Shown here piece after piece: positions 1,708 to 26,031 of a stretch of DNA of 26,031 nucleotides. Numbering within the stretch: position 1 is the first letter of the stretch; each line of letters starts with the position of its first letter. A model generated the notes under the pieces. That model did not search any database, was not told where the DNA came from, and saw only the letters and a program-made list of their open reading frames with translations. Source of the stretch: Opitutales bacterium. GTDB taxonomy: Bacteria; Verrucomicrobiota; Verrucomicrobiia; Opitutales; UBA2987. Made by a program: the position numbers and the translations under genes. The stretch lies in assembly GCA_021772515.1 (NCBI GenBank), contig JAJFLU010000057.1, forward strand, positions 1-26,031. The letters run 5' to 3'.

Positions 1708-1753
1708 TAGTTATTTTTCTCCTTGGGCTCAAAGAATGTATATCCCTTTTTAC

Positions 1754-3187: not shown

Positions 3188-3334
3188 ATGCTTAAAATTT
3201 TTGTGGTCTTATCTTGTTTTGTTGCTATATAAAATGCCTTTACCCACTAAAATAGAATACGCTAGAACTGAAACAAATTATTTGCAAGAGCGGAGTTGAT
3301 TCCGCTTTTGCCCCAAAAAACAGGAGACTCAATT
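3188..3334. promoter_or_regulatory. Divergent intergenic region between preT (minus) and beta-ureidopropionase (plus); presumed bidirectional promoter/operator region
   Basis: Inferred only from the divergent start codons 147 nt apart. It contains a small palindrome AGCGGA-N6-TCCGCT (3289-3306). No consensus promoter is claimed. Confidence 0.35.
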
Positions 3335-4204
3335 ATGGCACGTATCGTACGGGGAGGTTTAATACAAACGACGGTTACACACGAGGGCGACTCACCCATC
3401 GATGAAATCAAGGCCGCGATGATCGAGAAACACATGCGGATGATCGAGGACGCGGCTGCCAAAGGCTGTCATGTCGTTTGTTTGCAGGAAATTTTCTACG
3501 GACCCTATTTCTGCTGTGAACAGGATATCCGGTGGTATGACAGCACGGAACAAATACCCGACGGCCCCACCACACAGTTGATGATGGAAACCGCACGGCG
3601 CCTCGGCATTGTAATAATTGTGCCGATTTATGAGGTTGAGCAGACCGGTGTTTACTACAACACCGCCTCTGTTATCGATGCCGATGGCGCCTACTTGGGC
3701 AAATACCGCAAAAACCACATTCCCCATGTGAATCCCGGTTTCTGGGAGAAGTTTTATTTCAAACCCGGTAACCTCGGTTATCCCGTTTTTGAAACGGCCG
3801 TCGGGAAGGTTGGAGTCTATATTTGCTATGATCGGCATTTCCCGGATGGCGCTCGCTGCCTTGGTTTGAACGGCGCCGAAATCGTATTCAACCCCTCCGC
3901 TACGGTGGCCGGATTGAGCGAATACCTCTGGAAACTGGAACAACCCGCCCATGCCGCCGCCAATGGATACTTTATTGGCGCCATAAACCGGGTGGGTTTC
4001 GAAAAACCGTGGAATATGGGCGAATTTTACGGCCAATCCTATTTCTGTGACCCCCGTGGCCAGATTTTTGCCATTGGCAGTCGGGATAAAGATGAAGTAG
4101 TCGTCGCGGACTTCGATTTGGATATGATTCGCGAGGTCCGCAACACCTGGCAATTTTACCGTGACCGCAGACCCGAAACCTACGGAGCTATTACTCAACT
4201 TTAG
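3335..4204 (+). CDS. Beta-ureidopropionase / N-carbamoyl-beta-alanine amidohydrolase (nitrilase superfamily C-N hydrolase)
   Basis: Sequence contexts of the nitrilase Glu-Lys-Cys triad are present (VCLQEIF, YRKNHIP, VYICYDRHFPD). I prefer ATG 3335 (MARIVRGGLIQ), which is preceded by AGGAG at 3322-3326, over the track start 3296. The specific product is inferred from its position next to preTA; N-carbamoylputrescine amidase is the main alternative. Confidence 0.78.
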   Translation: MARIVRGGLIQTTVTHEGDSPIDEIKAAMIEKHMRMIEDAAAKGCHVVCLQEIFYGPYFCCEQDIRWYDSTEQIPDGPTTQLMMETARRLGIVIIVPIYEVEQTGVYYNTASVIDADGAYLGKYRKNHIPHVNPGFWEKFYFKPGNLGYPVFETAVGKVGVYICYDRHFPDGARCLGLNGAEIVFNPSATVAGLSEYLWKLEQPAHAAANGYFIGAINRVGFEKPWNMGEFYGQSYFCDPRGQIFAIGSRDKDEVVVADFDLDMIREVRNTWQFYRDRRPETYGAITQL

Positions 4205-4229
4205 TTGGAGTTCTGCTTCAATTCCGAAG

Positions 4230-6044
4230 GTGAAAGCATATATCTTTGGGGTAATTTTTGGCCTGATGGCTCTGAGTGCCTTCGCGGAGCGCGCTCCCAT
4301 AGCCATTGATGGCGTGTTTGAAGATTGGGCCGATGTGCCTGTTGCGTATTCCGATGCAGAGGACCAAGTGGGCGCTGGACAAGTCGATTTCCTCAATCTT
4401 TGGCTGGCCGACGATGAGGATTTCCTTTTTTTCCGGCTCGAATCGGCTCAGGAGTTCGACTCCAGCGAAAACAATCAGGTAATCCTTTATATTGATGCCG
4501 ATGACAACCCTGCAACCGGTCTGGCAATCGGGGGCATCGGTGCCGAGGTGGAGTGGCGGCTGGGAAGTCGGCGCGGTACTGTTTACCTCACTGGAGGCGG
4601 CACGGTGTCATTCAACTACCGGGATATTCGTTTTCGGGGCGCTCCCACCGTGGATGCCCTGGAATTCGAGTTTGCCGTAGGAAGGAATGAGATTATCGCC
4701 GAGACAGGCTTTACCATGCGCATCCTGTGGCTCGATGAGGGCAGTGGCGATACCCTCCCCGACAGCGGCGAAACCCTCAGCTACACATTCGACGAGGGAA
4801 ATGCTTTACCTCCTCTCAATCTGCTCTCATTCGAGCGTGACAAGCTGGAAGATCTGCGCATTGCCACCTACAATGTTCTTTTCGACAATCTTTTTAATCC
4901 CAACGCGCAGCCGGGATTTAGGAGGCAGATTCAGGCGGTTGCCCCGGACATTATCAATTTCCAGGAAATTTTTAGCAACACCGCAGCCGATACGAGAAAT
5001 CTGATTTCCCAGTGGCTGCCTCTGCCCGAGGGCGAAAGTTGGCATGTGGACGGAGGATTTGTACCCAATAACGATACCATAACGGTCAGTCGCTACCCAA
5101 TATTGGATACTTGGCAGCTTTTTGGCTCAAATACCACGACTGGAAATCTGGCGGTTCTCCTCGATACGGAAGCTGCTCTCGAGCGTAAGCTACTCCTGAT
5201 TAACGCCCACCTGCCTTCCGGCTCCAACGAGACTGCCAGACAGCAGGAGATCGATTTGATTATGGCTTTCATCCGCGATGCCAAGGAGGAGGGTGGGGTA
5301 GTCACGGTGGAACCCGATACGCCGATAGTTGTTGTTGGGGATCTGAACCTCGTGGGCCGTTCCCAGCAATTGCAAACCCTCCTCGATGGTGATATTCAGG
5401 ATGAGACAACCTTTGGGTCAGATGTATTTCCCGATTGGGATGGAAGCAATCTGACCGACCTCATTTCCCGCCACACCGATGCCCCCATGGGCTACACGTG
5501 GCGCAATGACGGCGAATCATTGGGGTTTTGGCCCGGCCATCTGGATTTTGTCATTTATTCGGACAGTGTTCTCGAAACCGGCAATCACTTTATTGTTTAC
5601 ACTCCTGATATGTCTTCTGATCGGTTATCAACCTATGGCCTTTCAGGTGGTGATTCCAATGTATCCGACCACATGATGGTAGTTGGCGATTTTCGAATTC
5701 CCGCCGTGGATGTGTTGGGAGGAACGGATATTACCTCCGTTCCAGGTTGGCGTCGTTCACCTTGGTATGGGGACTATTATGTCGGATCATACCCCTGGAT
5801 TTTTCACAATGAGCACGGCTGGCAATGGATCTACCCCGGCAGCACCAGCGATATAGTTTACATATTTGACCACGGATTCGACCAATGGCTCTTTACCAAC
5901 GAATCGGTCTATCGCTTTATGTTTGTATTCGGGCCTCCCGGTGAAGAAGCCTGGATTTGGTCCTTCCCGGACAATACACCGGAACTACGCCATTTTTTCA
6001 ATTTCGGAACCGACCAACTCTTTTCAATTCCTCCCCAAAATTAG
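4230..6044 (+). CDS. Secreted multidomain endonuclease/exonuclease/phosphatase (EEP) family protein
   Basis: The track ORF 4161-6044 overlaps the upstream gene. An internal GTG at 4230 gives MKAYIFGVIFGLMALSAFA|ERAP, a classical Sec leader. The central EEP signatures are LRIATYNVLFDN, INFQEIF, VVVGDLNLVG and SDHMMVVGDF. The N-terminal ~200 aa (IDGVFEDWADVP...) and the aromatic-rich C-terminal ~100 aa are additional domains. The start codon is uncertain (4161 vs 4230). Confidence 0.75.
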   Translation: MKAYIFGVIFGLMALSAFAERAPIAIDGVFEDWADVPVAYSDAEDQVGAGQVDFLNLWLADDEDFLFFRLESAQEFDSSENNQVILYIDADDNPATGLAIGGIGAEVEWRLGSRRGTVYLTGGGTVSFNYRDIRFRGAPTVDALEFEFAVGRNEIIAETGFTMRILWLDEGSGDTLPDSGETLSYTFDEGNALPPLNLLSFERDKLEDLRIATYNVLFDNLFNPNAQPGFRRQIQAVAPDIINFQEIFSNTAADTRNLISQWLPLPEGESWHVDGGFVPNNDTITVSRYPILDTWQLFGSNTTTGNLAVLLDTEAALERKLLLINAHLPSGSNETARQQEIDLIMAFIRDAKEEGGVVTVEPDTPIVVVGDLNLVGRSQQLQTLLDGDIQDETTFGSDVFPDWDGSNLTDLISRHTDAPMGYTWRNDGESLGFWPGHLDFVIYSDSVLETGNHFIVYTPDMSSDRLSTYGLSGGDSNVSDHMMVVGDFRIPAVDVLGGTDITSVPGWRRSPWYGDYYVGSYPWIFHNEHGWQWIYPGSTSDIVYIFDHGFDQWLFTNESVYRFMFVFGPPGEEAWIWSFPDNTPELRHFFNFGTDQLFSIPPQN

Positions 6045-6922
6045 CCGGAATCACCGACCTCCTCAGAGTAGAGCTTGTAAAGAGCCTGAGTTCCGAAATC
6101 CTCGCCGCCACTTGAAGCAAGGATCTGATAGAGCTTGTGGGCGAGGGTCAGACCGGGCAGGTCCATCTCCAGTTCACGGGCTGACTCCAGCGCGATGCCC
6201 ATGTCTTTTATGAAATGCTTCACGTAGAAACCGGGTGCGAAATCCCCCTTGATAAAACGAGGCGCCAAATTGCTCAAGGACCAGCTTCCCGCGGCGCCGT
6301 TTTCAATGGTCGCGATAACCTCCATCGGGTCGAGATTTGCTTTTTTGGCATAGGCCATAGCTTCGCAAATGCCCATCATTCCGGCGGCGATCGCAATCTG
6401 GTTGCTCATTTTGGTGTGTTGTCCGGCGCCCGCAGGCCCAAGTAAACCAATATTTTTGCCCATCAATGCGAACAATGGCTTGACCCGTTTAAAAACGGCT
6501 TCATCGCCCCCCACCATGATCGAGAGACGCGCTTCACGAGCCCCGATATCGCCACCCGAAACCGGAGCGTCCAGAGCGCCAATACCTTTTTCCGCCGCTT
6601 TTTCACAAATTTGGGCGGCTAGCTTTGGACTCGACGTGGTCATATCGACTACTACTGAACCGGCCCGAGCGTTTGCCAAAATACCATCTTCGCCCAAAAA
6701 AACCGCTTCAACATCCGCGGGAAAACCGACTATGGTTATGATAATGTCCGAGTTTGCAGCCACTTCTCCCGGCGAATCCCGCCAGATTGCGCCTTTTTCG
6801 ACCAAAGAATCGGCGCGTGACTTTGTCCGGTTAAAAACATTGAGCGAATAGCCGGCATTGAGCAAGTGCCCGGCCATGCTGCGCCCCATGACGCCCGTTC
6901 CAATAAATCCGATGGTTTCCAT
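6041..6922 (-). CDS. NAD(P)-dependent beta-hydroxyacid dehydrogenase (3-hydroxyisobutyrate / tartronate-semialdehyde / threonate dehydrogenase family)
   Basis: It starts METIGFIGTGVMGRSMAGHL (GxGxxG at the N-terminus) and has the family Lys context GAGQHTKMSNQ. ATG 6922 overlaps the TAA of the upstream DUF62 gene by 1 nt (TAATG). The track start 6952 would lie inside the upstream gene. Its stop overlaps the convergent EEP stop (6041-6044). Confidence 0.8.
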   Translation of the reverse strand: METIGFIGTGVMGRSMAGHLLNAGYSLNVFNRTKSRADSLVEKGAIWRDSPGEVAANSDIIITIVGFPADVEAVFLGEDGILANARAGSVVVDMTTSSPKLAAQICEKAAEKGIGALDAPVSGGDIGAREARLSIMVGGDEAVFKRVKPLFALMGKNIGLLGPAGAGQHTKMSNQIAIAAGMMGICEAMAYAKKANLDPMEVIATIENGAAGSWSLSNLAPRFIKGDFAPGFYVKHFIKDMGIALESARELEMDLPGLTLAHKLYQILASSGGEDFGTQALYKLYSEEVGDSG

Positions 6923-7911
6923 TATTTTGCCTTTCGTATTTCGATGGTCCAACCGGAGCCCGATTCGATGCCGTATCGTTGGGAGAAATTTCCCAAATTG
7001 ATGGATAGTTCCATATAGTAATTGGAGTTTGAATACAACAGAGGTTCGCCCTTGGAGACATCACCAAACGTTTTTACATAGGGCAGATTTTCCGAGTATA
7101 GAATCTCGCCGTTATGTTTAACCGTAATATCAGCGTGATCCTCCAACCGGACTAGACCGAGTTTTTCAAAGGTTTCAGTCGAAATATTTGTCCCCACATT
7201 TCCAAAGGAATCCACCGAGGTGAGGGTTCCTGAAATAACTCCTTCACTTATGGTGGCCTCCGTAATTTTTTCCAATTGAACGACCTTTGGTTCAAGCAGC
7301 GGCCCCACTTGCTCGTAGGTGATAACTCCAGAGGCCAATCGCGCTCCGGTGAAGGAATAAACATCGCGACCATGAAAGGTGTGGGCTTCTCCAGTTCCCT
7401 TGCGCCGGTTGACCGATTCGTCGATTTCCCTGACCGCCGTAATTCCCAATTCTTGAGCCACCATATCGAGACTTCCATTGTCGGGGCTGACAAAGTAGTG
7501 ACCGCTTTTGGTTTTCAAAACCACTGATCGCCGCACCGTGCCCACACCCGGATCGACGACCGAGACAAAGACCGTCCCACTCGGCCAAACGAGAGCGTTC
7601 TCAAGCAGACTCCGGGCGGCCTCGCGGGTGTCGAATTGTGTGATATTATGGCGAATATCGAAAATTTGGAGATCCGTATCGACGCTATGGGCGACCCCGC
7701 GCATGATGGACGCATAACTATCAGTCACTCCGAAATCGGATTGAAAAACGACCGCTGATTTTCCATTGAGAGGGCTGGCATTCATCGTTACAAAAAGTAA
7801 GAAAACATAGAGAGCGGCCATTAATTGCCAACGCTTTTGCCGGGTGGCGTAGGCTGTTGATATTTTTTGCCCATAATTCAAATTCTTCATGCGCAAAATG
7901 CTATGCGACAC
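6922..7911 (-). CDS. DUF62 family protein (SAM hydroxide adenosyltransferase / chlorinase-fluorinase fold) with N-terminal signal peptide or anchor; paralog 1
   Basis: DUF62 motifs are present: VVFQSDFGVTDSYASIMRGV, DIRHNI, VSVVDPGVGTVRR, HTFHGRDVYSF, and DSFGNVGTNI in the C-terminal domain. The N-terminus reads RQKRWQLMAALYVFLLFVTMNASPLNG before the catalytic domain. Track start 7911 is GTG; ATG 7890 (MKNLNYG) is an alternative. Confidence 0.8.
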   Translation of the reverse strand: MSHSILRMKNLNYGQKISTAYATRQKRWQLMAALYVFLLFVTMNASPLNGKSAVVFQSDFGVTDSYASIMRGVAHSVDTDLQIFDIRHNITQFDTREAARSLLENALVWPSGTVFVSVVDPGVGTVRRSVVLKTKSGHYFVSPDNGSLDMVAQELGITAVREIDESVNRRKGTGEAHTFHGRDVYSFTGARLASGVITYEQVGPLLEPKVVQLEKITEATISEGVISGTLTSVDSFGNVGTNISTETFEKLGLVRLEDHADITVKHNGEILYSENLPYVKTFGDVSKGEPLLYSNSNYYMELSINLGNFSQRYGIESGSGWTIEIRKAK

Positions 7912-7934
7912 TTCGGAGTCAATGCAAGCATTGC

Positions 7935-9449
7935 CTATTCTCTAACATTTTCCTCTGAGATACTACCGAGATTTTTCCGAAGATCTCGCAGCGAATAATC
8001 ATCGCCCACATTTCCCGGAAAAACGATAAAGGGAAGTCCCGGGTGTCTGGCTTCAGAGCCCATTTCCCAAACGGGAACCCCCGGCAAAATTTGCCCTGAC
8101 ACCATGGCCCGTTTCACACCCATTGCCTTGGTCGCTACCTCGCTCGATGTGATGCCTCCCTTGGCGACCAGATACCGGGGGCGAGTTTGGATTTGCCGAA
8201 CAGTTTCCACCAAACCTTCCGAAATTCGCCGCCCGATGGACAGGCTTTTCTCAGCATTTTTATCCGCAACCAACTCTCTGCTCGTGTAAATTACCACATC
8301 TTGGCCCAAGTCAAGAGATTGATCAGCCGCTACGGCCACCTGCGAAATCACCTCAGCATGGTTGCCTTTATCGATCAGTTCTCGGGCGGGTAGTTTAAGT
8401 GAAACCACACCCTTCTCTTGAATGAGGTTTTCTACCTGGATTGTGGTTTGGGAGACGTAGGAACCTACCACAAACAGTCCCCCTTTATCACCTGAAAAAA
8501 CTAAATCTGCGGTTGCGAGAAGGCTTCTCGGCGAGATTCCTGCTCGCGCGGCTACAAAGGAGGCTCCCGTACGGTAAATGAACCTTTTCCCAACCGCCTC
8601 CGCCTTCAACAAACCCAACATAAAGCATTCCAGGTCTCTGCGGTTAGCGGCGTTAATTATGACGACCGTTCCGCCCTCAATTTCACTCAATCGTCGCGCC
8701 ACCACATCGGGTCCGCCAATGCGAATATCCCCCAGCGAGATGGATGCCGTTTGTTCGGATTTTATTCTTCCTTTCGACTTTTCCTCCACCCATTCGAGTA
8801 AATTGGAAGCCCTGTAGCCGAAGGAGTGATCGCGAGCGAACTCCGATTGACCCGCCGGGAGGAGCCGATCCCCCTCAACCAGATAATGGACATCCCCGAT
8901 TGTCAGCCGACCGCTATCGCCGAAATAGGGACAGAGCAAACAACCGTCAAATCCACCGTCGAGAGCTTCTGTGAGCGCGTCAACCTCGCCGGGAAAATGT
9001 CCTCGCAAAGTGGAATCGCTCCGGCTGACAACGGCGATTTCGCGGTTTGTCAACTTGGCTGCTTCGCGGAGACGGTTCCCGATTTCGGCATTGATCTTAC
9101 AGGCCTGTCGAAGCGGAAAAGCTCGGGAGTTGGTGAGAAGATAAAAGGCGGGCAGGTCGTTGCGGAGTTCCTCGCAAAGAGCCTCCAATGGCCATTCCGT
9201 TAATACGGGAATGTCATGGACGGTTTGTGTGCCGGTGGGATCGTCGTCGATGGCGACAATCTTTTTTCCCGCTAATCTGAGAGCGGCTTCGATTTCGGAT
9301 GATGGATCGTGGGGCCATCCGGGCGGCAGATTTCGAAGCGCATCCGCAAGCGACGTAGGGTATTCTTTCACCGCAACGAAAATCGGTTCATTGGGCGGTG
9401 AAACCGAGGTCGATTGTCCATGAAGCCCCCGTGACAGCCCCCGCCGCAT
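7935..9449 (-). CDS. Four-carbon acid-sugar kinase family protein (DUF1537; OtnK/DtnK-like)
   Basis: It carries the family-typical N-domain motif IVAIDDDPTGTQTVHD, LTNSRA, and the C-terminal nucleotide-binding domain (VAKGGITSSEVA). The start is uncertain. ATG 9449 overlaps the upstream SDR by 62 nt, whereas GTG 9371 (VKEYPTS) lies 16 nt after the SDR stop. Confidence 0.8.
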   Translation of the reverse strand: MRRGLSRGLHGQSTSVSPPNEPIFVAVKEYPTSLADALRNLPPGWPHDPSSEIEAALRLAGKKIVAIDDDPTGTQTVHDIPVLTEWPLEALCEELRNDLPAFYLLTNSRAFPLRQACKINAEIGNRLREAAKLTNREIAVVSRSDSTLRGHFPGEVDALTEALDGGFDGCLLCPYFGDSGRLTIGDVHYLVEGDRLLPAGQSEFARDHSFGYRASNLLEWVEEKSKGRIKSEQTASISLGDIRIGGPDVVARRLSEIEGGTVVIINAANRRDLECFMLGLLKAEAVGKRFIYRTGASFVAARAGISPRSLLATADLVFSGDKGGLFVVGSYVSQTTIQVENLIQEKGVVSLKLPARELIDKGNHAEVISQVAVAADQSLDLGQDVVIYTSRELVADKNAEKSLSIGRRISEGLVETVRQIQTRPRYLVAKGGITSSEVATKAMGVKRAMVSGQILPGVPVWEMGSEARHPGLPFIVFPGNVGDDYSLRDLRKNLGSISEENVRE

Positions 9450-10146
9450 CGGAGCAAAGATACTGGACTAGCCCCGCCACTTCCTCCGGCTGAATCATGC
9501 GTTTGATAGCAGTCGATTTCAGGAAAATCTTTGCCGGAACCTCTTCCTTGGGGATATTGTGGAGAGCGGCCTGATCTTCCAATTGACCGGAAATCAGCGG
9601 AGTATCCACATAGGCGGGGCAAAGGGCATTTGCGGTGATACCATGCTCTCCGCCCTCCAACGCCGCTGTCCGGGTGAGGCCGAGCAGACCCGATTTGGCC
9701 GTCACGTAGGCCGCCTTGAATGGTGAGGCCACCAAGCCCTGGATCGAGGCGATATTTACGATGCGGCCCCAACCCGATTTTTTCATCGAAGGCCAGACAT
9801 ATTTGGTCAGCAAAAATGGAGCGGTCAGCATGACCTCCAGCATCGTATCCCAGGTTTTTTCGGGAAAGTTCTCGATCAAGTCCATATGTTGAAGCCCGGC
9901 GTTGTTGACCAAAATATCTACCCGCCCAAAGCGTTCGAGAGTGGCTTGCACAAGGCGTTGGCACTGCCCCCTCTCCACCAAGTCGGTAAGGTGAAACCAT
10001 GCGCCAAGTTCCTCGGCTACCCGACGGCCCCTATTTTCGTCGAGATCGGCCAAAACAACCTGTATGCCTTCCTCGACCAGCTTTTTGGCCGTCGCCTGGC
10101 CTATTCCACCGGCTCCTCCCGTAATGATGGCGACTTTAGATTCCAC
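9388..10146 (-). CDS. SDR family oxidoreductase, 3-hydroxybutyrate-dehydrogenase-like
   Basis: Contains TGGAGGIG (cofactor motif), NNAG, a catalytic Ser (NIASIQG) and YVTAK (YxxxK). The sequence NNAGLQHMDLIENFPEKTWD resembles the BdhA-type subfamily. GTG start at 10146, 11 nt after the stop of DUF62 paralog 2. Confidence 0.85.
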   Translation of the reverse strand: MESKVAIITGGAGGIGQATAKKLVEEGIQVVLADLDENRGRRVAEELGAWFHLTDLVERGQCQRLVQATLERFGRVDILVNNAGLQHMDLIENFPEKTWDTMLEVMLTAPFLLTKYVWPSMKKSGWGRIVNIASIQGLVASPFKAAYVTAKSGLLGLTRTAALEGGEHGITANALCPAYVDTPLISGQLEDQAALHNIPKEEVPAKIFLKSTAIKRMIQPEEVAGLVQYLCSDAAGAVTGASWTIDLGFTAQ

Positions 10147-10157
10147 TTCTAAAGCAT

Positions 10158-11075
10158 TCAGGACTTTTTCCGTATTTCCATAGTCCAGTCCTTGCCGTGA
10201 TGGATATCGTGGGTGGCGGCAAAGTTCCCTTGGTTGATCGCCATCGCAAGGAAGTAGCTGCTGTTGATAAATAACAGAGGCTCGCCCAGCGGGACCTCCC
10301 CGAAAGTTTTCGAAAAGGGAACATCCTGCTGCCAGACAATCTCGCCCTTGTGTCGAAAGGTGACCTCGACGATCTCGCCCTCTTTGATACCGAGTTTGTC
10401 GAAAGTTTCCATATCGATCCGGCTGGCCGTATTGCCCAATCTGCCTTGGGCCGTATAAACCATCCCGAAAGCAGATTTACCCTCGATGTAAGGCTTTACG
10501 TTATCCAACTGCACCACTTTGGCTTCGAGCAATGGCCCCACGCCCTCGAAATCGATCACCCCGGCGGCCAACCGCGCTCCCGTGAAGGAGTAAACATCAC
10601 GTCCGTGGAAGGTATGGGAACGCTCTGAGCCCTTGCGGCGGTTGACGGATTCATCGATTTCGCGAACCGCCTCGATTCCCAATGACTTAGCCACCAATGA
10701 CAAGGTGCCATTGTCGGGGCTAACAAAATAATGGCCGCTTTTGGTTTTCAGAACCACCGATTTGCGAACCGTTCCCACACCGGGATCGACCACGGATACA
10801 AACACTGTGCCGGATGGCCAATAGGGCGCCGTATATTCGAAACTGCGCGCTGCCTGATCGATATCGTAGAGGTTAATTAGCGGGCGGACATGAAAAATAT
10901 CCAGATCTTTACTCACGCCATAGGCGATTCCCTCCATGACCGCCCCCCCGAAATCGGCCTGGATGACAACAGCATTTTTACCCTGCGAAACGCCTCCAGT
11001 GAAGGCCCATGCAAGTAGAGCGGTTAAGAGGAATACTTGGTTATGCCAAAGGAATTGAGTGGTCGTTTTTTTCAT
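10158..11075 (-). CDS. DUF62 family protein (SAM hydroxide adenosyltransferase / chlorinase-fluorinase fold) with N-terminal signal peptide; divergent paralog 2
   Basis: The leader reads MKKTTTQFLWHNQVFLLTALLAWAFTGGVSQG|KNAVVIQADFGG. The central block WPSGTVFVSVVDPGVGTVRK...HTFHGRDVYSFTGARLA is 89/105 identical to paralog 1 by my manual alignment. The N-terminal loop and C-terminal domain are diverged. Confidence 0.8.
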   Translation of the reverse strand: MKKTTTQFLWHNQVFLLTALLAWAFTGGVSQGKNAVVIQADFGGAVMEGIAYGVSKDLDIFHVRPLINLYDIDQAARSFEYTAPYWPSGTVFVSVVDPGVGTVRKSVVLKTKSGHYFVSPDNGTLSLVAKSLGIEAVREIDESVNRRKGSERSHTFHGRDVYSFTGARLAAGVIDFEGVGPLLEAKVVQLDNVKPYIEGKSAFGMVYTAQGRLGNTASRIDMETFDKLGIKEGEIVEVTFRHKGEIVWQQDVPFSKTFGEVPLGEPLLFINSSYFLAMAINQGNFAATHDIHHGKDWTMEIRKKS

Positions 11076-11235: not shown

Positions 11236-12600
11236 ATGGAAGAGGCAATGCCATTTGAAGAATTGAAAACCCTCGATGATATTCCTGTTTACGAAACTGC
11301 TCCCGACGGGCGGCGCAGAGAGGGGAGGTTTTCTCTGGAGGATCTCCATTTCGCCAAAGATCCCATCAGATACCACGTGAACGCTTACCGACGGCACGGG
11401 GCAATTTATAAATGCTGGTTTCGCAATCAGGAGTGGGTGGCGATCGGCGGGCACGATGCGAATGATTTTGCCTGGCGGCAGCCCGATATCTGGAGTTACC
11501 GGGAGGCCATGGCCGGTTTCGGCAAACAACTCGGTTTTCGTCATGTAACCACTCTCGATGGCGTTCCCCATAGGTTGAAAAGGCGTTCCCTTAAACCAGG
11601 TTTCGGTAACTCGATCTTTCGGCATTTGCCCGCCATGAGCAAACTGGCGGCCACGGAGATCAACCGAAAAATCGACAAAAATATCGACCTGCATCAATTT
11701 TGTATGGAAACCATCATCCGACTTTCAGCGGGCACACTATTGAGGGCGGAAATCAGCGATGAAATGGTCCGTGAAATGGCGAAATTCGAGGAGATGTTCA
11801 TGCACGGCCTCAATGTCGGCGAATATGGGGATGATTATTTTGCGGGCGAAGATTATCGAAATACGAAAGAAAATGTATTCGGGTTTTTGCAGGAATTGAT
11901 CGAAAACCGTGATGAAAAGGGAAGCCCGGAAGATAGTTTCGCGGCCATGTTTGATGAACGCCCGGAACAGGCTGGCCCCTACGATATCCATGAAAAGCTG
12001 GATGACGCCTACCTGCTCTTAATCGCGGGAGCGGAAAATACTGCCCGGCTGATATGCTGGTGCCTGCAATACATCGCCGAGAGTCCCGATTGGCTCGATG
12101 AATTGCGTGAGGAATTGAGTGAGGGGTCATTGGATAATTTTCAAGAAGGCATGGCCCGTTTCCCGAAACTCAAGAATACCATCATGGAGGTGGAACGACT
12201 CCAGCCGGGAGCCTATTTTCATGTCCGAACAGCGGCTGAACCGATCGATTTTCAAGGCTGCCAAATCCCGAAGGGGTCAGAGATACTGCATATTCAGGGG
12301 CTCTGCCATTTTCTTGAGGAGATTTACGAGGACCCCTTTGAATTTAAGCCGCAACGATGGGATGGGCGGCAATATCCCCGCAAAGCCCATGGCACTTTTG
12401 GCGGCGGCACCCATCTATGTCTCGGCATAAATTTGGCAAAAATCCACACAACATTAATTTTAGCCCACCTTCTTAAAAATTGTAGTGTAACCCTCGATTT
12501 CAAACCCGATTTCCACCTATATCTGAATCCGGGTGGCGGCTTTCGACGATCCCCACTTCCCGCTCAGTTTATTCCCCTCGATCCCGGAAATGGCCAGTGA
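11236..12600 (+). CDS. Cytochrome P450
   Basis: Contains the heme-thiolate loop FGGGTHLCLG, a K-helix ExxR (EVER) and an I-helix-like LLIAGAENTA. 454 aa. An alternative ATG lies at 11248. Confidence 0.9.
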   Translation: MEEAMPFEELKTLDDIPVYETAPDGRRREGRFSLEDLHFAKDPIRYHVNAYRRHGAIYKCWFRNQEWVAIGGHDANDFAWRQPDIWSYREAMAGFGKQLGFRHVTTLDGVPHRLKRRSLKPGFGNSIFRHLPAMSKLAATEINRKIDKNIDLHQFCMETIIRLSAGTLLRAEISDEMVREMAKFEEMFMHGLNVGEYGDDYFAGEDYRNTKENVFGFLQELIENRDEKGSPEDSFAAMFDERPEQAGPYDIHEKLDDAYLLLIAGAENTARLICWCLQYIAESPDWLDELREELSEGSLDNFQEGMARFPKLKNTIMEVERLQPGAYFHVRTAAEPIDFQGCQIPKGSEILHIQGLCHFLEEIYEDPFEFKPQRWDGRQYPRKAHGTFGGGTHLCLGINLAKIHTTLILAHLLKNCSVTLDFKPDFHLYLNPGGGFRRSPLPAQFIPLDPGNGQ

Positions 12601-12626
12601 TCGTTTCAACCCGAATCCTAATAACA

Positions 12627-13553
12627 ATGTTAAAAACATACAGCCTGATCGCATTTTTACTCTCGGTTTTTTGTTTGAGTATGCTCGTCGGTTCCGATTC
12701 GGAGCCGAAAGAAAAAAATCCCTCACGTATCGCCATTGTGGCGGCATTTCAAGGAGAGATGGATGCTATCCGTGAGGAAATAGAGGGGGAAGAAATCACC
12801 GATGAAATTTCGATAAACGGGGTTAAATTTATTTTGGGGACGGCTTATGGGAAAAAAGTCGTCTTTTTCACGACTAATGTAAGCACCGTAAACGCGGCCA
12901 TGAACACGCAGCTTCTCCTCGACAGGTTTTCGGTTAAAATGCTCCTTTTTTCGGGTATCGCGGGGGGAGTCAATTGGGATTTGTCCAAGGGAGATGTAGC
13001 CATACCCGCCAAGTGGCATTATGTTTTGGAGGGAGCGGTTTTTAATGAAAAAGAAGACGGCAGTGGAGAATACGATGTCATTGAAGCTCCCTGGGCTGAT
13101 TTTAAGTATGGAAATTTCGGAATGATTCATCCGCTTGATGTGGCGGTGATTCGCAGCGGACTTGAAAAACCCGAGAGAAAGGCATTTTTCGAGGCAGATG
13201 CCGATCTATTGAAGTTATCCGCCAAAATTGCCGCCGATATTAACCTGCGTAATGCAAAGGGCGAAAAGGCGGTTATCAAAGTGGGCGGTGTGGGGGGCAC
13301 GAGCTCCGCTTTTTTGGATAATGCCAAATTTCGCGAATTTATCCACCAAGCATGGGGAACCGATTGCGTCGATATGGAATCGACACCCATCGCCCATGTT
13401 TGCTGGGCAAATGAAGTGCCTTTCCTCATTATTCGATCTCTCAGTGACCTGGCTGGCGGGCAAAAAGGGCTTAACGAAATGAAGGAACATGCAGAGGGCG
13501 CCAAGCATAACGCCGCCAAGATGTTGAATGATATTCTCAAATCGCTCGATTAA
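12627..13553 (+). CDS. PNP_UDP_1 family nucleosidase, 5'-methylthioadenosine/S-adenosylhomocysteine nucleosidase (MtnN)-like, with N-terminal signal peptide
   Basis: ATG 12627 gives MLKTYSLIAFLLSVFCLSMLVGS (hydrophobic leader). The track start 12597 is a GTG overlapping the P450 stop. MtnN-like motifs are IAIVAAFQGEMDAI, FSGIAGGV, VDMESTPIAHV and IRSLSDLAG. It starts 26 nt after the P450 stop. Confidence 0.75.
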   Translation: MLKTYSLIAFLLSVFCLSMLVGSDSEPKEKNPSRIAIVAAFQGEMDAIREEIEGEEITDEISINGVKFILGTAYGKKVVFFTTNVSTVNAAMNTQLLLDRFSVKMLLFSGIAGGVNWDLSKGDVAIPAKWHYVLEGAVFNEKEDGSGEYDVIEAPWADFKYGNFGMIHPLDVAVIRSGLEKPERKAFFEADADLLKLSAKIAADINLRNAKGEKAVIKVGGVGGTSSAFLDNAKFREFIHQAWGTDCVDMESTPIAHVCWANEVPFLIIRSLSDLAGGQKGLNEMKEHAEGAKHNAAKMLNDILKSLD

Positions 13554-17348: not shown

Positions 17349-17510
17349 CGTCTGATAAGGTTGGCAGGCAGGGTGTAAACCTGACACTTCACCATGCACA
17401 GCTTTCAGGGCATTACAATATTTTATGCAAAGGGTTTCAAAGCCTCCTGGCCGGGTCGGTTAGGGTTTTTTCTTTACGCGCCGTTTCTGGGCATCATACT
17501 CAACAGGCCT
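17349..17510. promoter_or_regulatory. Divergent intergenic region between the LolA-like/RND operon (minus) and SDR/deo genes (plus)
   Basis: Inferred from divergent start codons 162 nt apart. No motif is claimed. Confidence 0.3.
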
Positions 17511-18486: not shown

Positions 18487-18500
18487 TCTTGGTTAACCCT

Positions 18501-19679
18501 ATGAAAGCGTCCCTGCTTGTTATCGATAGCTTTGGTATCGGCGCTCTGCCGGATGCTGGAAATTATGGGGATGAAGGCTCCAATACCGCTTTGCATATCT
18601 GCGAGAATGTCCCCGAAATCCACCTGCCCAATTTGACTCGCCTTGGATTGGGCAATTGCTCGGAAATTTTGGGCAATCCCCTTCCTGGAATCCCTTCTCA
18701 GGCGACTCCGTTGGCCTCATGGGGTGTGATGAAAGAGCAGTCCCCCGGTAAGGACACGACGACGGGCCATTGGGAATTGGCAGGCATTATTCTCGATAAA
18801 CCCTTCCCGACTTTCCCTATAATTGCCCCTTCGTTTCCCGAGGAAATTATACAACCGTTCCGTCAGACATTCAGGGTGGGCGTCCTTGGAAATGAATCGG
18901 CCTCCGGGGTAGATATCATCGCCCGGTTGGGAGAGGAGCATGTGCAAACCGGCAACCCAATCGTTTACACCTCGGCGGATTCAGTTTTGCAGGTGGCAGC
19001 TCATGAAGAGGTTATCCCTCTGACGCAGCTTTATGAGATGTGCATGGTACTTCGACGTCTCTGCGACCCTTTTCAGGTGGGCAGGGTAATTGCTCGTCCC
19101 TTTCTGGGCGAACCTGGAAATTTTGAACGCACTGCCAACCGCAAGGATTTTAGCCTGCCCCTGCCGCATAATACCATCTTGGATGTTATGGGTGAACATG
19201 GTGTCAAAACCATCGCCGTGGGCAAAATTGGCGACATCTTCAATGAAAAAGGAATCGATGAAAGTTACCACGATAAAGGGAACACCGCCTGTCTCGAGCG
19301 AACGGTGAATCTTTTGCGGGACAGGGCAGGGGAGTCCTTTTTCATGTTCGTAAATTATGTGGATACCGATATGTTCTACGGCCACCGCCGGGATGTGAGC
19401 GGATATTACGAAGCCCTCGTCGAGATCGACCAGTATTTGGGCCAAATGATCGATTATATGAATACCGGAGACCTCCTTATGGTAACCGCTGACCACGGTT
19501 GCGACCCCACCTTCGAGGGCACCGACCATACCCGCGAATATGTGCCCATACTCGCTTATCGAAAAGGGTGGCCGGGCGGAAACATCGGCATCAGGGATAG
19601 TTTTGCCGATGCCGCCCAAAGTGTGGCAGCCTGTTTCGGAACTTCTCCACTTCCCAATGGGGCAAGTTTTTTCCTATAA
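18501..19679 (+). CDS. deoB: Phosphopentomutase
   Basis: Starts MKASLLVIDSFGIGALPDAGNYGDEGSNTALHI and contains ...TADHGCDPT..., typical of DeoB (alkaline-phosphatase superfamily metal sites). I prefer ATG 18501 over the TTG at 18489. Confidence 0.9.
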   Translation: MKASLLVIDSFGIGALPDAGNYGDEGSNTALHICENVPEIHLPNLTRLGLGNCSEILGNPLPGIPSQATPLASWGVMKEQSPGKDTTTGHWELAGIILDKPFPTFPIIAPSFPEEIIQPFRQTFRVGVLGNESASGVDIIARLGEEHVQTGNPIVYTSADSVLQVAAHEEVIPLTQLYEMCMVLRRLCDPFQVGRVIARPFLGEPGNFERTANRKDFSLPLPHNTILDVMGEHGVKTIAVGKIGDIFNEKGIDESYHDKGNTACLERTVNLLRDRAGESFFMFVNYVDTDMFYGHRRDVSGYYEALVEIDQYLGQMIDYMNTGDLLMVTADHGCDPTFEGTDHTREYVPILAYRKGWPGGNIGIRDSFADAAQSVAACFGTSPLPNGASFFL

Positions 19680-19704
19680 CCCTCAATCTCGCATCCTGCA
19701 TCCC
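19680..19704 (+). promoter_or_regulatory. deoA leader box CCCTCAATCTCGCATCCTGCATCCC, homologous to the deoB leader box
   Basis: The 16-mer CCCTCAATCTCGCATC (19680-19695) matches 18440-18454 with one inserted A. It ends 47 nt before the deoA ATG, versus 46 nt for deoB. Confidence 0.3.
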
Positions 19705-19742
19705 ACATCTTCTCCACCCTCCTGACACCACAGAAATCAATT

Positions 19743-21050
19743 ATGTTTCCACAAGATATCATTAGAAAAAAACGGGATGGCAGTTCCCTTAGCCGCGAGG
19801 AAATCGAAATTTTTGTCGAGGGCGTCGTCTCGGGAGCCTTCGCAAAATACCAATCGTCGGCCTTGCTCATGGCGATTTATCTGAATGGCATGACGGCGCG
19901 GGAAACCGGTTGGTTGACGGCTGCCATGATGAAATCCGGCGAGGTAATCGACCTCAGCCACATCGGATTGCCCAAGGCCGACAAACATTCCACCGGCGGT
20001 ATCGGTGACAAAGTTTCCCTCATCCTCGCTCCGCTGGCGGCTTCAGCCGGGCTTTGTGTGCCCATGATTAGTGGTCGGGGCTTGGGGCATACCGGGGGAA
20101 CCCTTGATAAACTCGAAGCCATTCCGGGATTTAGCGTCCAACAGGATACTCCCCAATTCAAACAACAGCTCGCGGAAATAGGCGTGGCCATGATCGGGCA
20201 AACCGCCGCTCTCGTTCCGGCGGATCGCGAACTATATGCTCTCCGCGATGTGACCGCCACCGTTTCCTGCATCCCCCTGATATGTGCAAGCATCATGAGC
20301 AAGAAATTGGCCGAAGGAACCGATTCGTTGGTGCTCGACGTCAAGTATGGAGTCGGCGCATTTATGAAAACTCCGCAGCTTGCGCGGGAGCTTGCCGAGG
20401 CCATGGTAGCCATCGGTAAGGAGATGGATCGCACAACGGTGGCATTTTTAACCGCCATGAACCAGCCGCTGGGCCGCAAATGTGGCAATGCTCTCGAAGT
20501 GGTGGAAAGTATCGAATGCCTCAAGGGCGAAGGGCCCGCCGATCTCATGGAAGTCGTGCTGACCCTGGCCTCTCAAATGATGGTTTGCGGCGGATTATCC
20601 GAATGCCGGGAGGAAGCGGAGGGCATTTTGAGGCAAAAAATCGAATCCGGCCAAGCTCTCGAATTATTCCGCAAAATGGTGCAGGCACAGGGCGGCGATT
20701 CCCGTGTGATCGACGACTATGGCATTTTACCCATTGCCTCGGAAATTGTTGATGTTGTCTATGTCGGGAAGGACGGGTTCGTAAATGAGGTCCACGCTCT
20801 CAAAATCGGCCACGCCCTGATGGCCCTCGGAGCGGGTCGGGAATCGGTCGATTCCGGCATTGATTTGGCCGTCGGGATTAGCGACCTTGTAAAAGTAGGC
20901 GAACCTGTTACTGGAGGCGCGGTCCTTTGCCGTATTCATATAAATAGACAGGAGAGTCTGACTGGAGCCGAGAAACTCGTCCGGGAGGCCATCAAGGTGG
21001 AAACCGAAGCTCCTCAACCTGAAAAACTTATTTTCGATTTTATTTCCTGA
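19743..21050 (+). CDS. deoA: Thymidine / pyrimidine-nucleoside phosphorylase
   Basis: Starts MFPQDIIRKKRDGSSLSREEIEIFV and contains DKHSTGGIGDKVSLILAPLAA and GRGLGHTGGTLDKLE. These are the canonical glycosyltransferase family 3 / DeoA motifs. Confidence 0.9.
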   Translation: MFPQDIIRKKRDGSSLSREEIEIFVEGVVSGAFAKYQSSALLMAIYLNGMTARETGWLTAAMMKSGEVIDLSHIGLPKADKHSTGGIGDKVSLILAPLAASAGLCVPMISGRGLGHTGGTLDKLEAIPGFSVQQDTPQFKQQLAEIGVAMIGQTAALVPADRELYALRDVTATVSCIPLICASIMSKKLAEGTDSLVLDVKYGVGAFMKTPQLARELAEAMVAIGKEMDRTTVAFLTAMNQPLGRKCGNALEVVESIECLKGEGPADLMEVVLTLASQMMVCGGLSECREEAEGILRQKIESGQALELFRKMVQAQGGDSRVIDDYGILPIASEIVDVVYVGKDGFVNEVHALKIGHALMALGAGRESVDSGIDLAVGISDLVKVGEPVTGGAVLCRIHINRQESLTGAEKLVREAIKVETEAPQPEKLIFDFIS

Positions 21051-21094
21051 TTTCCCAACTTTACATTAATTGACTACTCGGAGGATTATTTAAA

Positions 21095-21910
21095 ATGCAG
21101 GTCGCGCTTGATTATATACTATCGAAAATTAATGGATTTACTCCCGCCACGGGCCTTGTTCTGGGTTCGGGGCTCGGGTTTTTTGCCGATGATCGAATGA
21201 AGGATCCGATTGTGATTCCCTACGAAGAGATTCCCAACTTTCCCCGTTCAACCACCGAAGGGCATAAGGGCAATCTCGTTTTTGGCACGGTGGATGGGCA
21301 TAATGTCGTCTGTATGCAGGGGCGCTTTCACTTCTACGAAGGCTACCCCATGAGCGAGTTGATCAAACCGATCCGCATCATGGCCAAGCTTGGCGTCAAG
21401 ACCCTCATTGTGACCAATGCCGCCGGGGGCATCAATCGGAATTTCATCGAGGGAACACTCATGCTCATTACTGACCATATCAATTTTTTGGGAACCAATC
21501 CGCTTTTCGGGACAAATGACGATTCGATCGGGTGTCGTTTCCCCGATATGTCCACCGCCTATGACCCCGAATTGCGAGAAAAGGCGGAGCAAGTGGCCGA
21601 ATCCCTCGGGATTGCCGTGGACAAGGGAGTTTACCTCGCCGCCACCGGGCCATCCTACGAGACCCCGGCGGAAATTCGGGCCTTCGAGACGCTCGGGGTC
21701 GATGCCGTGGGTATGTCCACCGTTCCCGAATGCATCGCGGCCAACCACGCCGGAATAAAGGTTTGCGGAATCTCCTGTATTACCAATAAAGCGGCTGGAA
21801 TTTCCGAAAAACCACTCTCCCATGAGGAGGTGGCCGAGACCGCCAATCGCGTAAAGAATGAGTTCGCGGACTTGCTGGAGCATTTGATTCCCGCCTTTAA
21901 CGCTTCTTGA
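21095..21910 (+). CDS. punA: Purine nucleoside phosphorylase (trimeric PNP / PunA type)
   Basis: Contains GLVLGSGLG, EGHKGNLVFG, MQGRFHFYEGY, VTNAAGGIN and VGMSTVPE. GGAGG lies about 10 nt upstream of the ATG. Confidence 0.9.
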   Translation: MQVALDYILSKINGFTPATGLVLGSGLGFFADDRMKDPIVIPYEEIPNFPRSTTEGHKGNLVFGTVDGHNVVCMQGRFHFYEGYPMSELIKPIRIMAKLGVKTLIVTNAAGGINRNFIEGTLMLITDHINFLGTNPLFGTNDDSIGCRFPDMSTAYDPELREKAEQVAESLGIAVDKGVYLAATGPSYETPAEIRAFETLGVDAVGMSTVPECIAANHAGIKVCGISCITNKAAGISEKPLSHEEVAETANRVKNEFADLLEHLIPAFNAS

Positions 21911-21949
21911 GTCGATAGCGTTAATTTTTTGCAATTGGATGCGGTAACA

Positions 21950-23287
21950 ATGGCCCGAATAATTTCCCTGGATGAAAAAATCAGCCCGGGGGTCGCTTTC
22001 GCGTGTGGATTGCAGCATGTCCTGGCCATGTTTGTGGGGATCATCACCCCGCCACTGATTATCGGCGGCGCCCTTGGCCTGACGAGCGGAGATACCGCTT
22101 TTCTGGTCAGCATGGCCCTGTTTACCTCGGGCGTCACGACCTTTGTGCAAGTGCGAAGATTCGGCGCTGTGGGATCCGGATTGCTCAGTGTGCAGGGCAC
22201 CAGTTTTACCTTTGTGCCACTGGCTTTGGAGGCGGGCAGGGGAGGGGGAATTTCGCTCATTCTCGGCCTGACAATCCTGTGCGCTCCGGTGGAAATTGTT
22301 CTCAGCCGTTTCATAGGTCTTGTTCGCAAACTCTTCCCTCCGGTTGTGACCGGCTCCGTCATCATGCTCATTGGTATTAGCCTGATTCGGGTGGGGATGC
22401 TGGATTTGGCCGGAGGTGTTGGCGCGGACGATTTCGGCTCATTTGGAAATCTGGGGATGGGTTTCTTTGTCATGGCTGTGATCGTGCTGGTGAGCCTGTT
22501 TGGGCATGGATTTTTTCGCATGGTATCCATCGCCATTGGCCTGATTAGCGGATACCTCCTCGCGGCCTTGCTTGGCTGGATAGACTTCACACCGGTGGGC
22601 CAAGCGGAGATTTTCACCTTTCCCATGCCCCTGCATTTCGGGCTCGATTTCAATATCCTTTACCTGTTGCCCTGGATAGTGGGCTATGCCGTTACCTCAA
22701 TCGAAACGATTGGCGACGTCACGGCCACTTCCGCTGTTTCGGGCGAGCCGGTCAAAGGTTCCGTCTATATAAAACGATTGCAAGGCGGAGTGTTGGCCGA
22801 TGGCCTCGGCAGCGTGTTTGCGGGACTCTTTAACGCCATGCCTAACACCACTTTTTCTCAAAATAACGGGGTGATCAAACTCACCGGAGTGGCCTCGCGG
22901 CGGGCGGGGTTTGTTGTCGCTATTCTCCTCACAATCCTTGGCCTTTTCCCTCAAATAGCCGCTTTCGTCAGTGTGATGCCCAAACCGGTCCTCGGGGGCG
23001 CAACAATCGTGCTCTTTGCCACTGTCGCTGTGGCCGGACTGCGGCTGGTAATCACGGACGGCCTCACCCCCCGGAAGGAACTCATCCTCGCGATCACCCT
23101 GGCCTTTGGTCTCGGCGCAACCATGGTTCCCGAAGCCTTTAGCAACTTTGATAGTTTCGGTGCAGATAACCCCCTGCTTCACGGAATCCTCGGATCAATA
23201 AAAGTGGTCCTGCAATCGGGAATCGCCGTAGCCGGAATCACCGCCACCACCCTGAACCTCCTCCTGCCAGAAGAAAAAAGTGGTTGA
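21950..23287 (+). CDS. NCS2/NAT family nucleobase:cation symporter (xanthine/urate-type signature)
   Basis: Contains GLQHVLAMFVGIITPPLIIG and multiple TM segments. The NAT signature QNNGVIKLTG begins with Gln, as in xanthine/uric-acid transporters rather than the Glu of uracil transporters. I prefer ATG 21950 (MARIISLDEK) over the TTG at 21929. Confidence 0.87.
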   Translation: MARIISLDEKISPGVAFACGLQHVLAMFVGIITPPLIIGGALGLTSGDTAFLVSMALFTSGVTTFVQVRRFGAVGSGLLSVQGTSFTFVPLALEAGRGGGISLILGLTILCAPVEIVLSRFIGLVRKLFPPVVTGSVIMLIGISLIRVGMLDLAGGVGADDFGSFGNLGMGFFVMAVIVLVSLFGHGFFRMVSIAIGLISGYLLAALLGWIDFTPVGQAEIFTFPMPLHFGLDFNILYLLPWIVGYAVTSIETIGDVTATSAVSGEPVKGSVYIKRLQGGVLADGLGSVFAGLFNAMPNTTFSQNNGVIKLTGVASRRAGFVVAILLTILGLFPQIAAFVSVMPKPVLGGATIVLFATVAVAGLRLVITDGLTPRKELILAITLAFGLGATMVPEAFSNFDSFGADNPLLHGILGSIKVVLQSGIAVAGITATTLNLLLPEEKSG

Positions 23288-25743: not shown

Positions 25744-26031
25744 TCATGATAATTTGTTATCCTCATTTACGATTCTAAAACAACGGCAATCAGAATTGTA
25801 ATATAATTTTGAAGAAAACTTCTCGTTTATGTCTTCGATGGATGACCCGATTAGCTTTAGTGGATTTTTATACCCGACAGTGATCAATTCATCTATAGGT
25901 AGGAAATCAAGACCGGCCAGGTGGTTGATGCATTGAAGCATGGTTGCCGACGAGCCGACGAGGCATTGTTTTTCGAAGTTATAAATGCGGCCGGACGGTT
26001 CTAAAACAACGTTATTTCCCATAGTATTATA
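25744..26031 (-). CDS. C-terminal fragment of a metal-dependent amidohydrolase (NagA-like); the frame is open to the right edge of the window
   Basis: The frame stays open upstream of the track ATG 26022 (YNT precedes MGNN). The sequence ...GRIYNFEKQCLVGSSATMLQCINHLAGL...ELITVGYKNPLKLIG resembles the NagA C-terminus (L.GS.LTM...v.nl......l.e.......P...lG). It lies in markedly AT-rich DNA. Confidence 0.35.
   Translation of the reverse strand, partial: YNTMGNNVVLEPSGRIYNFEKQCLVGSSATMLQCINHLAGLDFLPIDELITVGYKNPLKLIGSSIEDINEKFSSKLYYNSDCRCFRIVNEDNKLS

Follow-up and report, generated by a model that had tools for sequence, protein, structure and literature searches.

Two DUF62 proteins with Sec-type leaders from an Opitutales bacterium are candidate periplasmic adenosine-releasing hydrolases

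The S-adenosyl-L-methionine (SAM) hydroxide adenosyltransferases, or (R)-SAM hydrolases (PH0463, MJ1651, Thermotoga 2zbu and Salinispora StDUF62), are leaderless enzymes of the DUF62 family. Their role is at present proposed to be the repair of (R,S)-SAM in the cytosol, and a 2025 study questions whether this is their true function (PMC12120602). We found no report of a signal peptide, a periplasmic location or a receptor linkage for DUF62 in the literature searched, which left some subscription papers uncovered. Here, we analyze two DUF62 genes, DUF62-1 and DUF62-2, in a 26,031-nucleotide stretch of DNA from an Opitutales bacterium (GenBank assembly GCA_021772515.1, contig JAJFLU010000057.1, positions 1 to 26,031 of the forward strand; hereafter the window). 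Their products have the same two-domain PF01887+PF20257 fold as the characterized hydrolases, and the adenosine contacts and the Asp-Arg-His water-activating triad are common to both groups (PMC4859513). Unlike those enzymes, the window proteins carry Sec-type leaders, score 104–138 bits against (R)-SAM hydrolase cutoffs of 350/470 and, in the case of DUF62-2, lack the methionine-amine ligands.

On balance, both genes probably encode Sec-exported periplasmic DUF62 hydrolases that would release adenosine for scavenging. The two genes and their predicted leaders are as follows:

6922..7911, minus strand: DUF62-1, type 1 SAM_HAT-family protein, predicted to be exported; longest open reading frame (ORF) from GTG 7911 (PF01887 1.7e-44, PF20257 4.9e-21)
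7762..7911, minus strand: DUF62-1 leader, with a basic n-region (..TRQKR), h-core WQLMAALYVFLLFVTM, c-region NASPLNG and predicted signal peptidase I (SPase I) site LNG↓KS
10158..11075, minus strand: DUF62-2, type 2 SAM_HAT-family protein, predicted to be exported, with a 5-residue deletion after the DFG motif
10980..11075, minus strand: DUF62-2 leader, with an MKK n-region, h-core VFLLTALLAWAFTGGV and predicted site SQG↓KN

The N-terminus of DUF62-1 reads ...RQKRWQLMAALYVFLLFVTMNASPLNG followed by KSAVVFQSDFG, and that of DUF62-2 reads MKKTTTQFLWHNQVFLLTALLAWAFTGGVSQG followed by KNAVVIQADFG. An earlier note on this DNA, made from the letters alone, had placed the two ORFs at these coordinates, quoted these N-termini and described a basic, hydrophobic, small-residue leader of the Sec type before each domain. 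Its coordinates and quotations are correct, and both leaders are present.

Both window proteins clearly belong to an established family and do not represent a new kind of system. DUF62-1 scored 151.6 bits with PF01887 (SAM_HAT_N) and 75.3 bits with PF20257 (SAM_HAT_C), and DUF62-2 scored 127.5 and 53.2 bits, respectively, with full domains and both profile ends covered (Pfam gathering cutoffs 26.3 and 25.5 bits). The AlphaFold2 model of DUF62-2 (mean pLDDT 89.5) matched 2zbu, SalL, FlA and PH0463 with target-normalized template modeling (TM) scores of 0.80–0.89, 2zbu being the best match (TM 0.88). The fluorinase model TIGR04507 (cutoff 400) gave 97.8 bits for DUF62-1 and 62.8 bits for DUF62-2.

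The earlier note had also held that characterized DUF62 proteins begin just before the motif, and the solved members (2zbu, 7ccg, SalL, PH0463, MJ1651 and FlA) do start 2–15 residues ahead of DFG. Residues 1–50 of DUF62-1 and 1–33 of DUF62-2 therefore have no structural counterpart. We scored these segments heuristically for n-region charge, best 8-residue Kyte-Doolittle hydrophobicity and −3/−1 sites, with other window proteins as controls. A Sec/SPase I signal peptide was taken to have a positive n-region, a 7–15-residue apolar h-core and small −3/−1 residues in the c-region, followed by the mature domain. Both leaders have a net-positive n-region and small-residue −3/−1 sites (LNG↓K in DUF62-1 and SQG↓K in DUF62-2), and the apolar core spans 16 residues in each. 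The hydrophobicity maximum was 3.01 for DUF62-1 and 2.91 for DUF62-2; the other leader-bearing window proteins (MtnN-like, endonuclease/exonuclease/phosphatase (EEP) and LolA-like) reached at least 2.8, and 11 cytosolic window controls stayed at or below 2.5. By this scoring, the controls and conservation across the clade, both segments are classed as Sec/SPase I signal peptides. Neither leader contains an RR motif or a Cys, which rules out twin-arginine translocation (Tat) export and lipoprotein (SPase II) status for both window proteins.

The DUF62-2 leader must be translated, because ATG 11075 is the sole possible start and no in-frame ATG, GTG or TTG lies between the hydrophobic core and the domain. 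The absence of a downstream ATG had been noted before, and it extends to GTG and TTG. For DUF62-1 the in-frame starts are GTG 7911, ATG 7890 (the NCBI call, P0121, 322 aa), ATG 7821 and ATG 7785. The first three had been listed correctly and the fourth, which encodes Met43 of the GTG ORF, had been overlooked. Orthologues P0122–P0128 keep the basic-then-hydrophobic leader and have no Met at the Met43 position, so an upstream start is favored, not proven. There is no clear Shine-Dalgarno motif at any candidate start of either gene. A mis-called start is thus excluded for DUF62-2 and kept as a minor rival for DUF62-1.

A survey of the family for leaders had been suggested, and it makes the leader a trait of a large multi-phylum clade. 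A strict leader test applied to 226 close homologues found a leader in 212, with an AXA-like site in 211 of these; the 14 others had mostly marginal or truncated N-termini. All 120 best homologues of DUF62-2 (58–84% identity) have a variable leader and then a conserved (KE)RNAVVIQADFGGA, and most of the best DUF62-1 homologues share the design of a leader and a conserved mature N-terminus. Random-pair identity was 0.34 in the leader vs. 0.56 in the segment of equal length just downstream. Leaders are thus conserved in kind, not in sequence, across the clade, which is the signature of functional signal peptides. Among 192 distinct leaders the apolar core had a median length of 14 residues (interquartile range 12–15), reached 20 or more residues in only 3, and ended ∼10 residues ahead of the catalytic Asp. 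These dimensions fit a cleavable Sec/SPase I peptide rather than an anchor or tether. An RR-like pattern occurred in 8 of the 192.

A scan of one genome per GTDB species returned at least 591 loci with the clade motifs. The 80 best of these and 8 others, all from species-representative genomes, made up a set of 88 related loci, and leaders are encoded at nearly all of them. The leader-bearing loci are spread over Opitutales, KSB1, Calditrichaceae, Chitinophagaceae and other Bacteroidota, several lineages of Gammaproteobacteria and some Bacillota; the monoderm Bacillota and the Leptotrichia members have a leader and then a linker. Lipobox-like leaders were seen in a minority (proteins P0129, P0140 and P0214, and the DUF62 genes of loci L035, L074 and L078). 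In a library of 50%-identity cluster representatives (8519 family representatives at E up to 1e-3), the nearest 150 were taken and 117 were assessable: 69 had a leader, 41 were leaderless and 7 had another kind of extension. Leaders are common in this part of the family, and every characterized member is leaderless. Since leaders are found in both genes and in relatives from hundreds of species, the enzymes most likely act outside the cytoplasm. Three relatives far exceed the length of one DUF62 protein: P0126 (444 aa) is a leaderless tandem duplication of the DUF62 domain, P0250 (672 aa) has a leader and extra C-terminal sequence, and P0334 has 563 aa.

The window proteins were aligned to FlA, SalL and 2zbu to compare their active sites (FlA numbering; residue roles from PMC4859513 and PMC12080486). 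Roles have been assigned to D16, N215 and the hydrolase triad D68-R75-H127 of PH0463 (PMC4859513), and in fluorinases and SalL the methionine portion of SAM is kept in place through salt bridges with D21, D210 and R270 (PMC12080486). The adenosine contacts D16, N215, F156 and F254 are present in both window proteins, and so is the Asp-Arg-His triad, in the invariant VVDPGVGTxR and FHGRD motifs; the D/N/D/H pattern is present in 272 of 333 relatives. The halide-site residues of FlA (T80/S158) and SalL (Y70/G131) were not found in the window proteins, where Asp replaces Tyr77/Tyr70 and His replaces Tyr157. Because the adenosine contacts and the triad are kept, both proteins belong to the hydrolase branch and not to the halogenases.

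The two proteins differ at the methionine site. The type 1 motif of DUF62-1 is Q[ST]DFGxxDxxxxxM[KR]G, with D21 and D210 kept and Asn at 270. The type 2 motif of DUF62-2 is QADFG-----GAVM; the 5-residue deletion removes D21 and S23, and Gln and Ser occupy positions 210 and 270. Across the 333 relatives, 166 have both D21 and D210, 140 have neither and 27 are mixed; position 210 is Arg, a charge reversal, in 101 proteins, and all 120 type 2 proteins lack D21 and D210. D21 and R270 are likewise missing from the solved hydrolase 2zbu, and these residues therefore do not strictly define a SAM hydroxide adenosyltransferase. DUF62-1 can plausibly bind SAM because it keeps D21 and D210, and its most likely reaction would be the hydrolysis of exogenous SAM, or of an adenosyl-sulfonium compound close to it, to adenosine and methionine. 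The leaving group of DUF62-2 probably has no alpha-ammonium because both residues are lost; DUF62-2 would most likely act on an adenosyl compound other than SAM, and it and its whole subclade may not use SAM. The earlier note had treated the paralogues alike, which is right for their leaders and missed the difference in methionine-binding residues.

Neighboring genes were clustered de novo over the 88 related loci. Two of the clusters (55 and 20 loci) were alternative-frame ORFs overlapping DUF62 itself and were discarded as artefacts. A TonB-dependent receptor gene is directly adjacent to, and co-directional with, DUF62 in 17–19 of the 88 loci from two phyla. The receptor gene mostly comes first and DUF62 second in Chitinophagaceae; Steroidobacteraceae and other Gammaproteobacteria have the reverse order. 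Identity between the L073 and L068 receptors, which are orthologous, is 31% over 833 residues (E 6e-108); no named receptor equivalog was matched, and the scores lie far under the BtuB equivalog cutoffs. Unrelated housekeeping genes, SecA and UvrB, lie at their flanks; the receptor and the leader-bearing DUF62 look like a stand-alone two-gene module, which argues for a dedicated uptake route. In 5–8 gammaproteobacterial loci, genes for adenosine deaminase (Add), 8-oxoguanine deaminase (equivalog model reached, 652 bits vs. 532) and a type 2 DUF62 form an operon, and an NCS2 permease gene and a gene for a leader-bearing ADGF-like adenosine deaminase diverge from it. The loci with these arrangements are:

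L073, 3042–6897, and L068, 5977–9399: receptor-DUF62 module
L033, L039, L042, L044, L045, L053, L062, L064, L069, L075, L077, L084 and L088: further loci with the receptor-DUF62 module
L018, L020, L022, L023, L028, L030 and L036, about 500–6900: gammaproteobacterial purine cluster

Tandem pairs of leader-bearing DUF62 paralogues were seen in L004, L007/L027, L008, L044 and L046, and leader-bearing MtnN-like homologues lie near DUF62 genes in L001 and L007.

In the window, five tightly packed genes occupy 6041–11075 on the minus strand (DUF62-2, SDR, DUF1537 kinase, DUF62-1 and HIBADH-like). The genes other than DUF62 discussed here are:

9388..10146, minus strand: SDR, 3-hydroxybutyrate-dehydrogenase-like, leaderless, beginning 11 nt past the DUF62-2 stop
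7935..9449, minus strand: DUF1537 four-carbon acid-sugar kinase family protein, leaderless
6041..6922, minus strand: HIBADH/tartronate-semialdehyde-reductase-like dehydrogenase, whose start codon (ATG, 6922) shares bases with the stop of DUF62-1 (TAATG)
11236..12600, plus strand: cytochrome P450, divergent from DUF62-2, leaderless
12597..13553, plus strand: MTA/SAH-nucleosidase-like PNP_UDP_1 protein (MtnN-like; MTA, methylthioadenosine; SAH, S-adenosylhomocysteine) with its own Sec-type leader (TIGR01704 84.1 bits, cutoff 73.8)
4161..6044, plus strand: EEP-family protein of 627 residues with a leader
18489..23287, plus strand: phosphopentomutase-like (DeoB-like), pyrimidine nucleoside phosphorylase, purine-nucleoside-phosphorylase-like and NCS2 xanthine permease genes (nucleoside breakdown in the cytosol and import of nucleobases)

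The window also encodes a PreT/PreA-type dihydropyrimidine dehydrogenase and a CN-hydrolase, and it is a nucleoside and pyrimidine catabolism island. We read the metalloenzyme-superfamily protein in 18489..23287 as phosphopentomutase-like. The P450 gene is translationally coupled to the MtnN-like gene, the stop of the former overlapping the start of the latter (GTGA). No NCBIfam model matched the EEP-family protein, which may be a nuclease or phosphatase that acts outside the cytoplasm and feeds the nucleoside island. The DUF1537 kinase scored 56 bits vs. the 350–450-bit cutoffs of the D-threonate and 3-oxo-tetronate kinase equivalogs. Its longest ORF runs 62 nt into the 3′ end of the SDR gene and has 63 residues before SBD_N with no internal Met, which makes its true start uncertain. 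The neighbors had been described as leaderless and starting at their motifs: the SDR and the kinase do lack leaders, but the kinase has those 63 residues ahead of SBD_N. Elsewhere in the window, one gene (13636–16419, minus strand) encodes a fusion of an MMPL/RND-type transporter, with MMPL, sterol-sensing and Patched domains, and a cyclic-nucleotide-binding domain at the C-terminus; a LolA-like gene (16497–17399) comes after it. At 24676–26031, forward frame 1 is crowded with stops and the sole ORF of at least 90 aa has 92 aa on the minus strand.

The earlier note had proposed an operon that mixes exported and cytosolic steps of one pathway. When the window proteins were searched by phmmer against the ORFs of the 88 related loci, the kinase was found in none, the HIBADH-like protein in 1, the P450 in 1, the MtnN-like protein in 2 and the SDR in 4. 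The closest relative, L001 (82% identity), has the order PNP-P450-DUF62-SDR...HIBADH and lacks both the kinase and DUF62-1; a P450 gene beside DUF62-2 is conserved only there, and other Opitutales DUF62 contexts differ again from the window and from L001. The L001 P450 (8489–9841, minus strand) is split into two ORFs (159 + 287 aa) and may be a pseudogene or an assembly frameshift. The linkage is lineage-specific, and a conserved DUF62/kinase/SDR/HIBADH pathway is rejected. Because the linkage is not conserved, the co-transcription indicated by the TAATG overlap defines no conserved exported-then-cytosolic pathway.

The proposed scheme is as follows. Both genes would encode Sec-dependent, SPase I-cleaved precursors of periplasmic SAM hydroxide adenosyltransferase-family hydrolases, and the mature enzymes are probably trimeric like the other family members. 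The Asp-Arg-His triad would activate a water molecule that attacks C5′ of an exogenous 5′-substituted adenosine, so that adenosine and the leaving group are set free in the periplasm. These would then be imported and pass into the nucleoside and nucleobase catabolic island that surrounds the two genes and includes the leader-bearing MtnN-like enzyme. Action outside the cytoplasm had been suggested in the earlier note, and this suggestion gains support from the clade-wide leaders, the adjacent TonB-dependent receptor, the purine-salvage neighbors and the leader-bearing MtnN-like gene. With export, cytosolic (R,S)-SAM repair cannot be the role of the exported members. Tentatively, and with less confidence, we propose that exported DUF62 is the periplasmic part of a nutrient acquisition route for adenosyl-onium compounds (SAM and its relatives), often paired with a dedicated TonB-dependent receptor, and that type 2 has become newly specific for a non-methionine leaving group. 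Such a route would import adenosyl-onium compounds over the outer membrane and split them into adenosine and the leaving group, as sources of purine, methionine or sulfur. The leaving group of type 2 is possibly anionic, given the Asp-to-Arg change.

Several points weigh against periplasmic scavenging. The analysis shows the identity of the domains, the features of the leaders and their conservation over the clade, the pattern of active-site residues and the gene neighborhoods. Export of both proteins is inferred from heuristics and conservation, and that the leaders are cleaved, that the enzymes are active, on which substrates, and that they serve scavenging is likewise inferred. The predicted DUF62-1 site has Leu at −3, which is suboptimal, and ATG 7785–7783 (Met43, 'VTM NAS') would yield a leaderless DUF62-1 of canonical length. 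The NCBIfam (R)-S-adenosyl-L-methionine hydrolase equivalogs NF058624 and NF053629 (cutoffs 350 and 470 bits) were not reached by DUF62-1 (138.4 and 107.3 bits) or DUF62-2 (104 and 78.8 bits). The co-loss of D21 and D210 is partly phylogenetic, type 2 being essentially one clade. No riboswitch of any kind, the SAM, purine and cobalamin classes included, was detected at gathering thresholds at the 21 loci examined, so there is no regulatory clue to the ligand, and many loci have no informative neighbors. SAM is also small enough to pass through porins, and the receptor link is therefore not specific to SAM.

The proteins might be exported and yet SAM be the substrate of neither paralogue. We regard this as unlikely, though it is the alternative that survives best. 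Each would then act on another 5′-substituted adenosine, for detoxification or cofactor remodeling; adenosylcobalamin, a nucleoside antibiotic and 5′-halo- or 5′-sulfated adenosine are examples. Type 2 has lost the methionine-amine ligands, with the Arg charge reversal in most members, the neighboring receptor points to a ligand dependent on active uptake, and the physiological role of DUF62 SAM hydrolysis has itself been questioned (PMC12120602). However, D21 and D210 are still present in DUF62-1 and in most type 1 proteins, and the informative neighbors are purine salvage genes; no resistance or biosynthetic genes were seen. Adenosylcobalamin, which the receptor had brought to mind, is unsupported: the cobalamin riboswitch is absent at the 21 loci, and the receptors fall far below the BtuB cutoffs.

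It is improbable that the hydrophobic segments are uncleaved signal anchors that tether the enzymes to the outer face of the inner membrane, although the earlier note had left an N-terminal anchor as an option beside action in the periplasm or at the membrane surface. The weak −3 Leu and a 23-residue uncharged stretch in DUF62-1, and a 29-residue uncharged stretch in DUF62-2, would suit an anchor. The apolar cores are nevertheless short, 16 residues in the window and only rarely 20 in the clade (3 of 192, median 14), and an AXA-like site is present in 211 of 212 leaders. A core ∼10 residues before the catalytic Asp would leave almost no linker for a trimeric enzyme, and some homologues use lipoboxes, a different and cleaved mode of attachment. 

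That the leaders are artefactual or non-functional, and that a downstream start yields ordinary cytosolic (R,S)-SAM repair hydrolases, is very improbable: ATG 7785, the want of a clear Shine-Dalgarno motif and the 41 leaderless representatives among 117 leave room for it, but DUF62-2 has no possible downstream start, the DUF62-1 orthologues have no internal Met, the physicochemical pattern of the leader is kept over hundreds of species while its sequence drifts, and the receptor and other leader-bearing neighbors recur.

In sum, (i) the leader finding extends well beyond this window; and (ii) a large multi-phylum clade predicted to lie outside the cytoplasm cannot serve (R,S)-SAM repair. The exported clade makes DUF62 function testable, since it offers defined proteins, a linked outer-membrane receptor, purine-salvage neighbors and two active-site variants. 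If periplasmic scavenging is correct, the DUF62 family gains a physiological function that is not the repair of (R,S)-SAM in the cytosol, extracellular SAM-type compounds become a recognized microbial nutrient in soil, freshwater and marine systems, and the known reaction scope of a biocatalytically interesting family (fluorinases and chlorinases) widens.

The chlorinase SalL and the fluorinase FlA have a homologous fold; D16, N215 and the aromatic adenine contacts are shared with both window proteins, and D21 and D210 with DUF62-1. In contrast to them, the window proteins have the hydrolase triad at the halide site (Asp at Y70/Y77, His in FHGRD) and no R270, and SalL and FlA are cytosolic biosynthetic enzymes, unlike the leader-bearing window proteins. 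The scavenging logic proposed here is that of E. coli UshA and CpdB, periplasmic hydrolases that turn poorly transported adenosine derivatives into transportable nucleosides, which then enter Deo/purine catabolism. UshA and CpdB, however, are metallophosphoesterases acting on phosphate esters, and their fold and chemistry are unrelated to DUF62.

Borrelia burgdorferi exports the MTA/SAH nucleosidases (MTANs) Bgp and MtnN, which salvage purine and methionine from outside, and exported MTANs were described as unique to Borrelia, an extreme auxotroph (PMC7557402). There, and as proposed for the window, a normally cytoplasmic enzyme of SAM-derived nucleosides carries a signal peptide and acts at or near the cell surface, and the window too encodes a leader-bearing MTAN-like protein near DUF62-2. 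The families differ: the MTANs cleave the N-glycosidic bond to give adenine, whereas DUF62 substitutes at C5′ to give adenosine. Unlike the Borrelia case, the DUF62 leader trait is spread over free-living phyla of soil, freshwater and marine habitats. Dissolved MTA can be measured in the seawater of reefs (PMC10504872), and together with the exported MTANs of Borrelia (PMC7557402) this makes the scavenging of adenosyl compounds by exported DUF62 proteins plausible.

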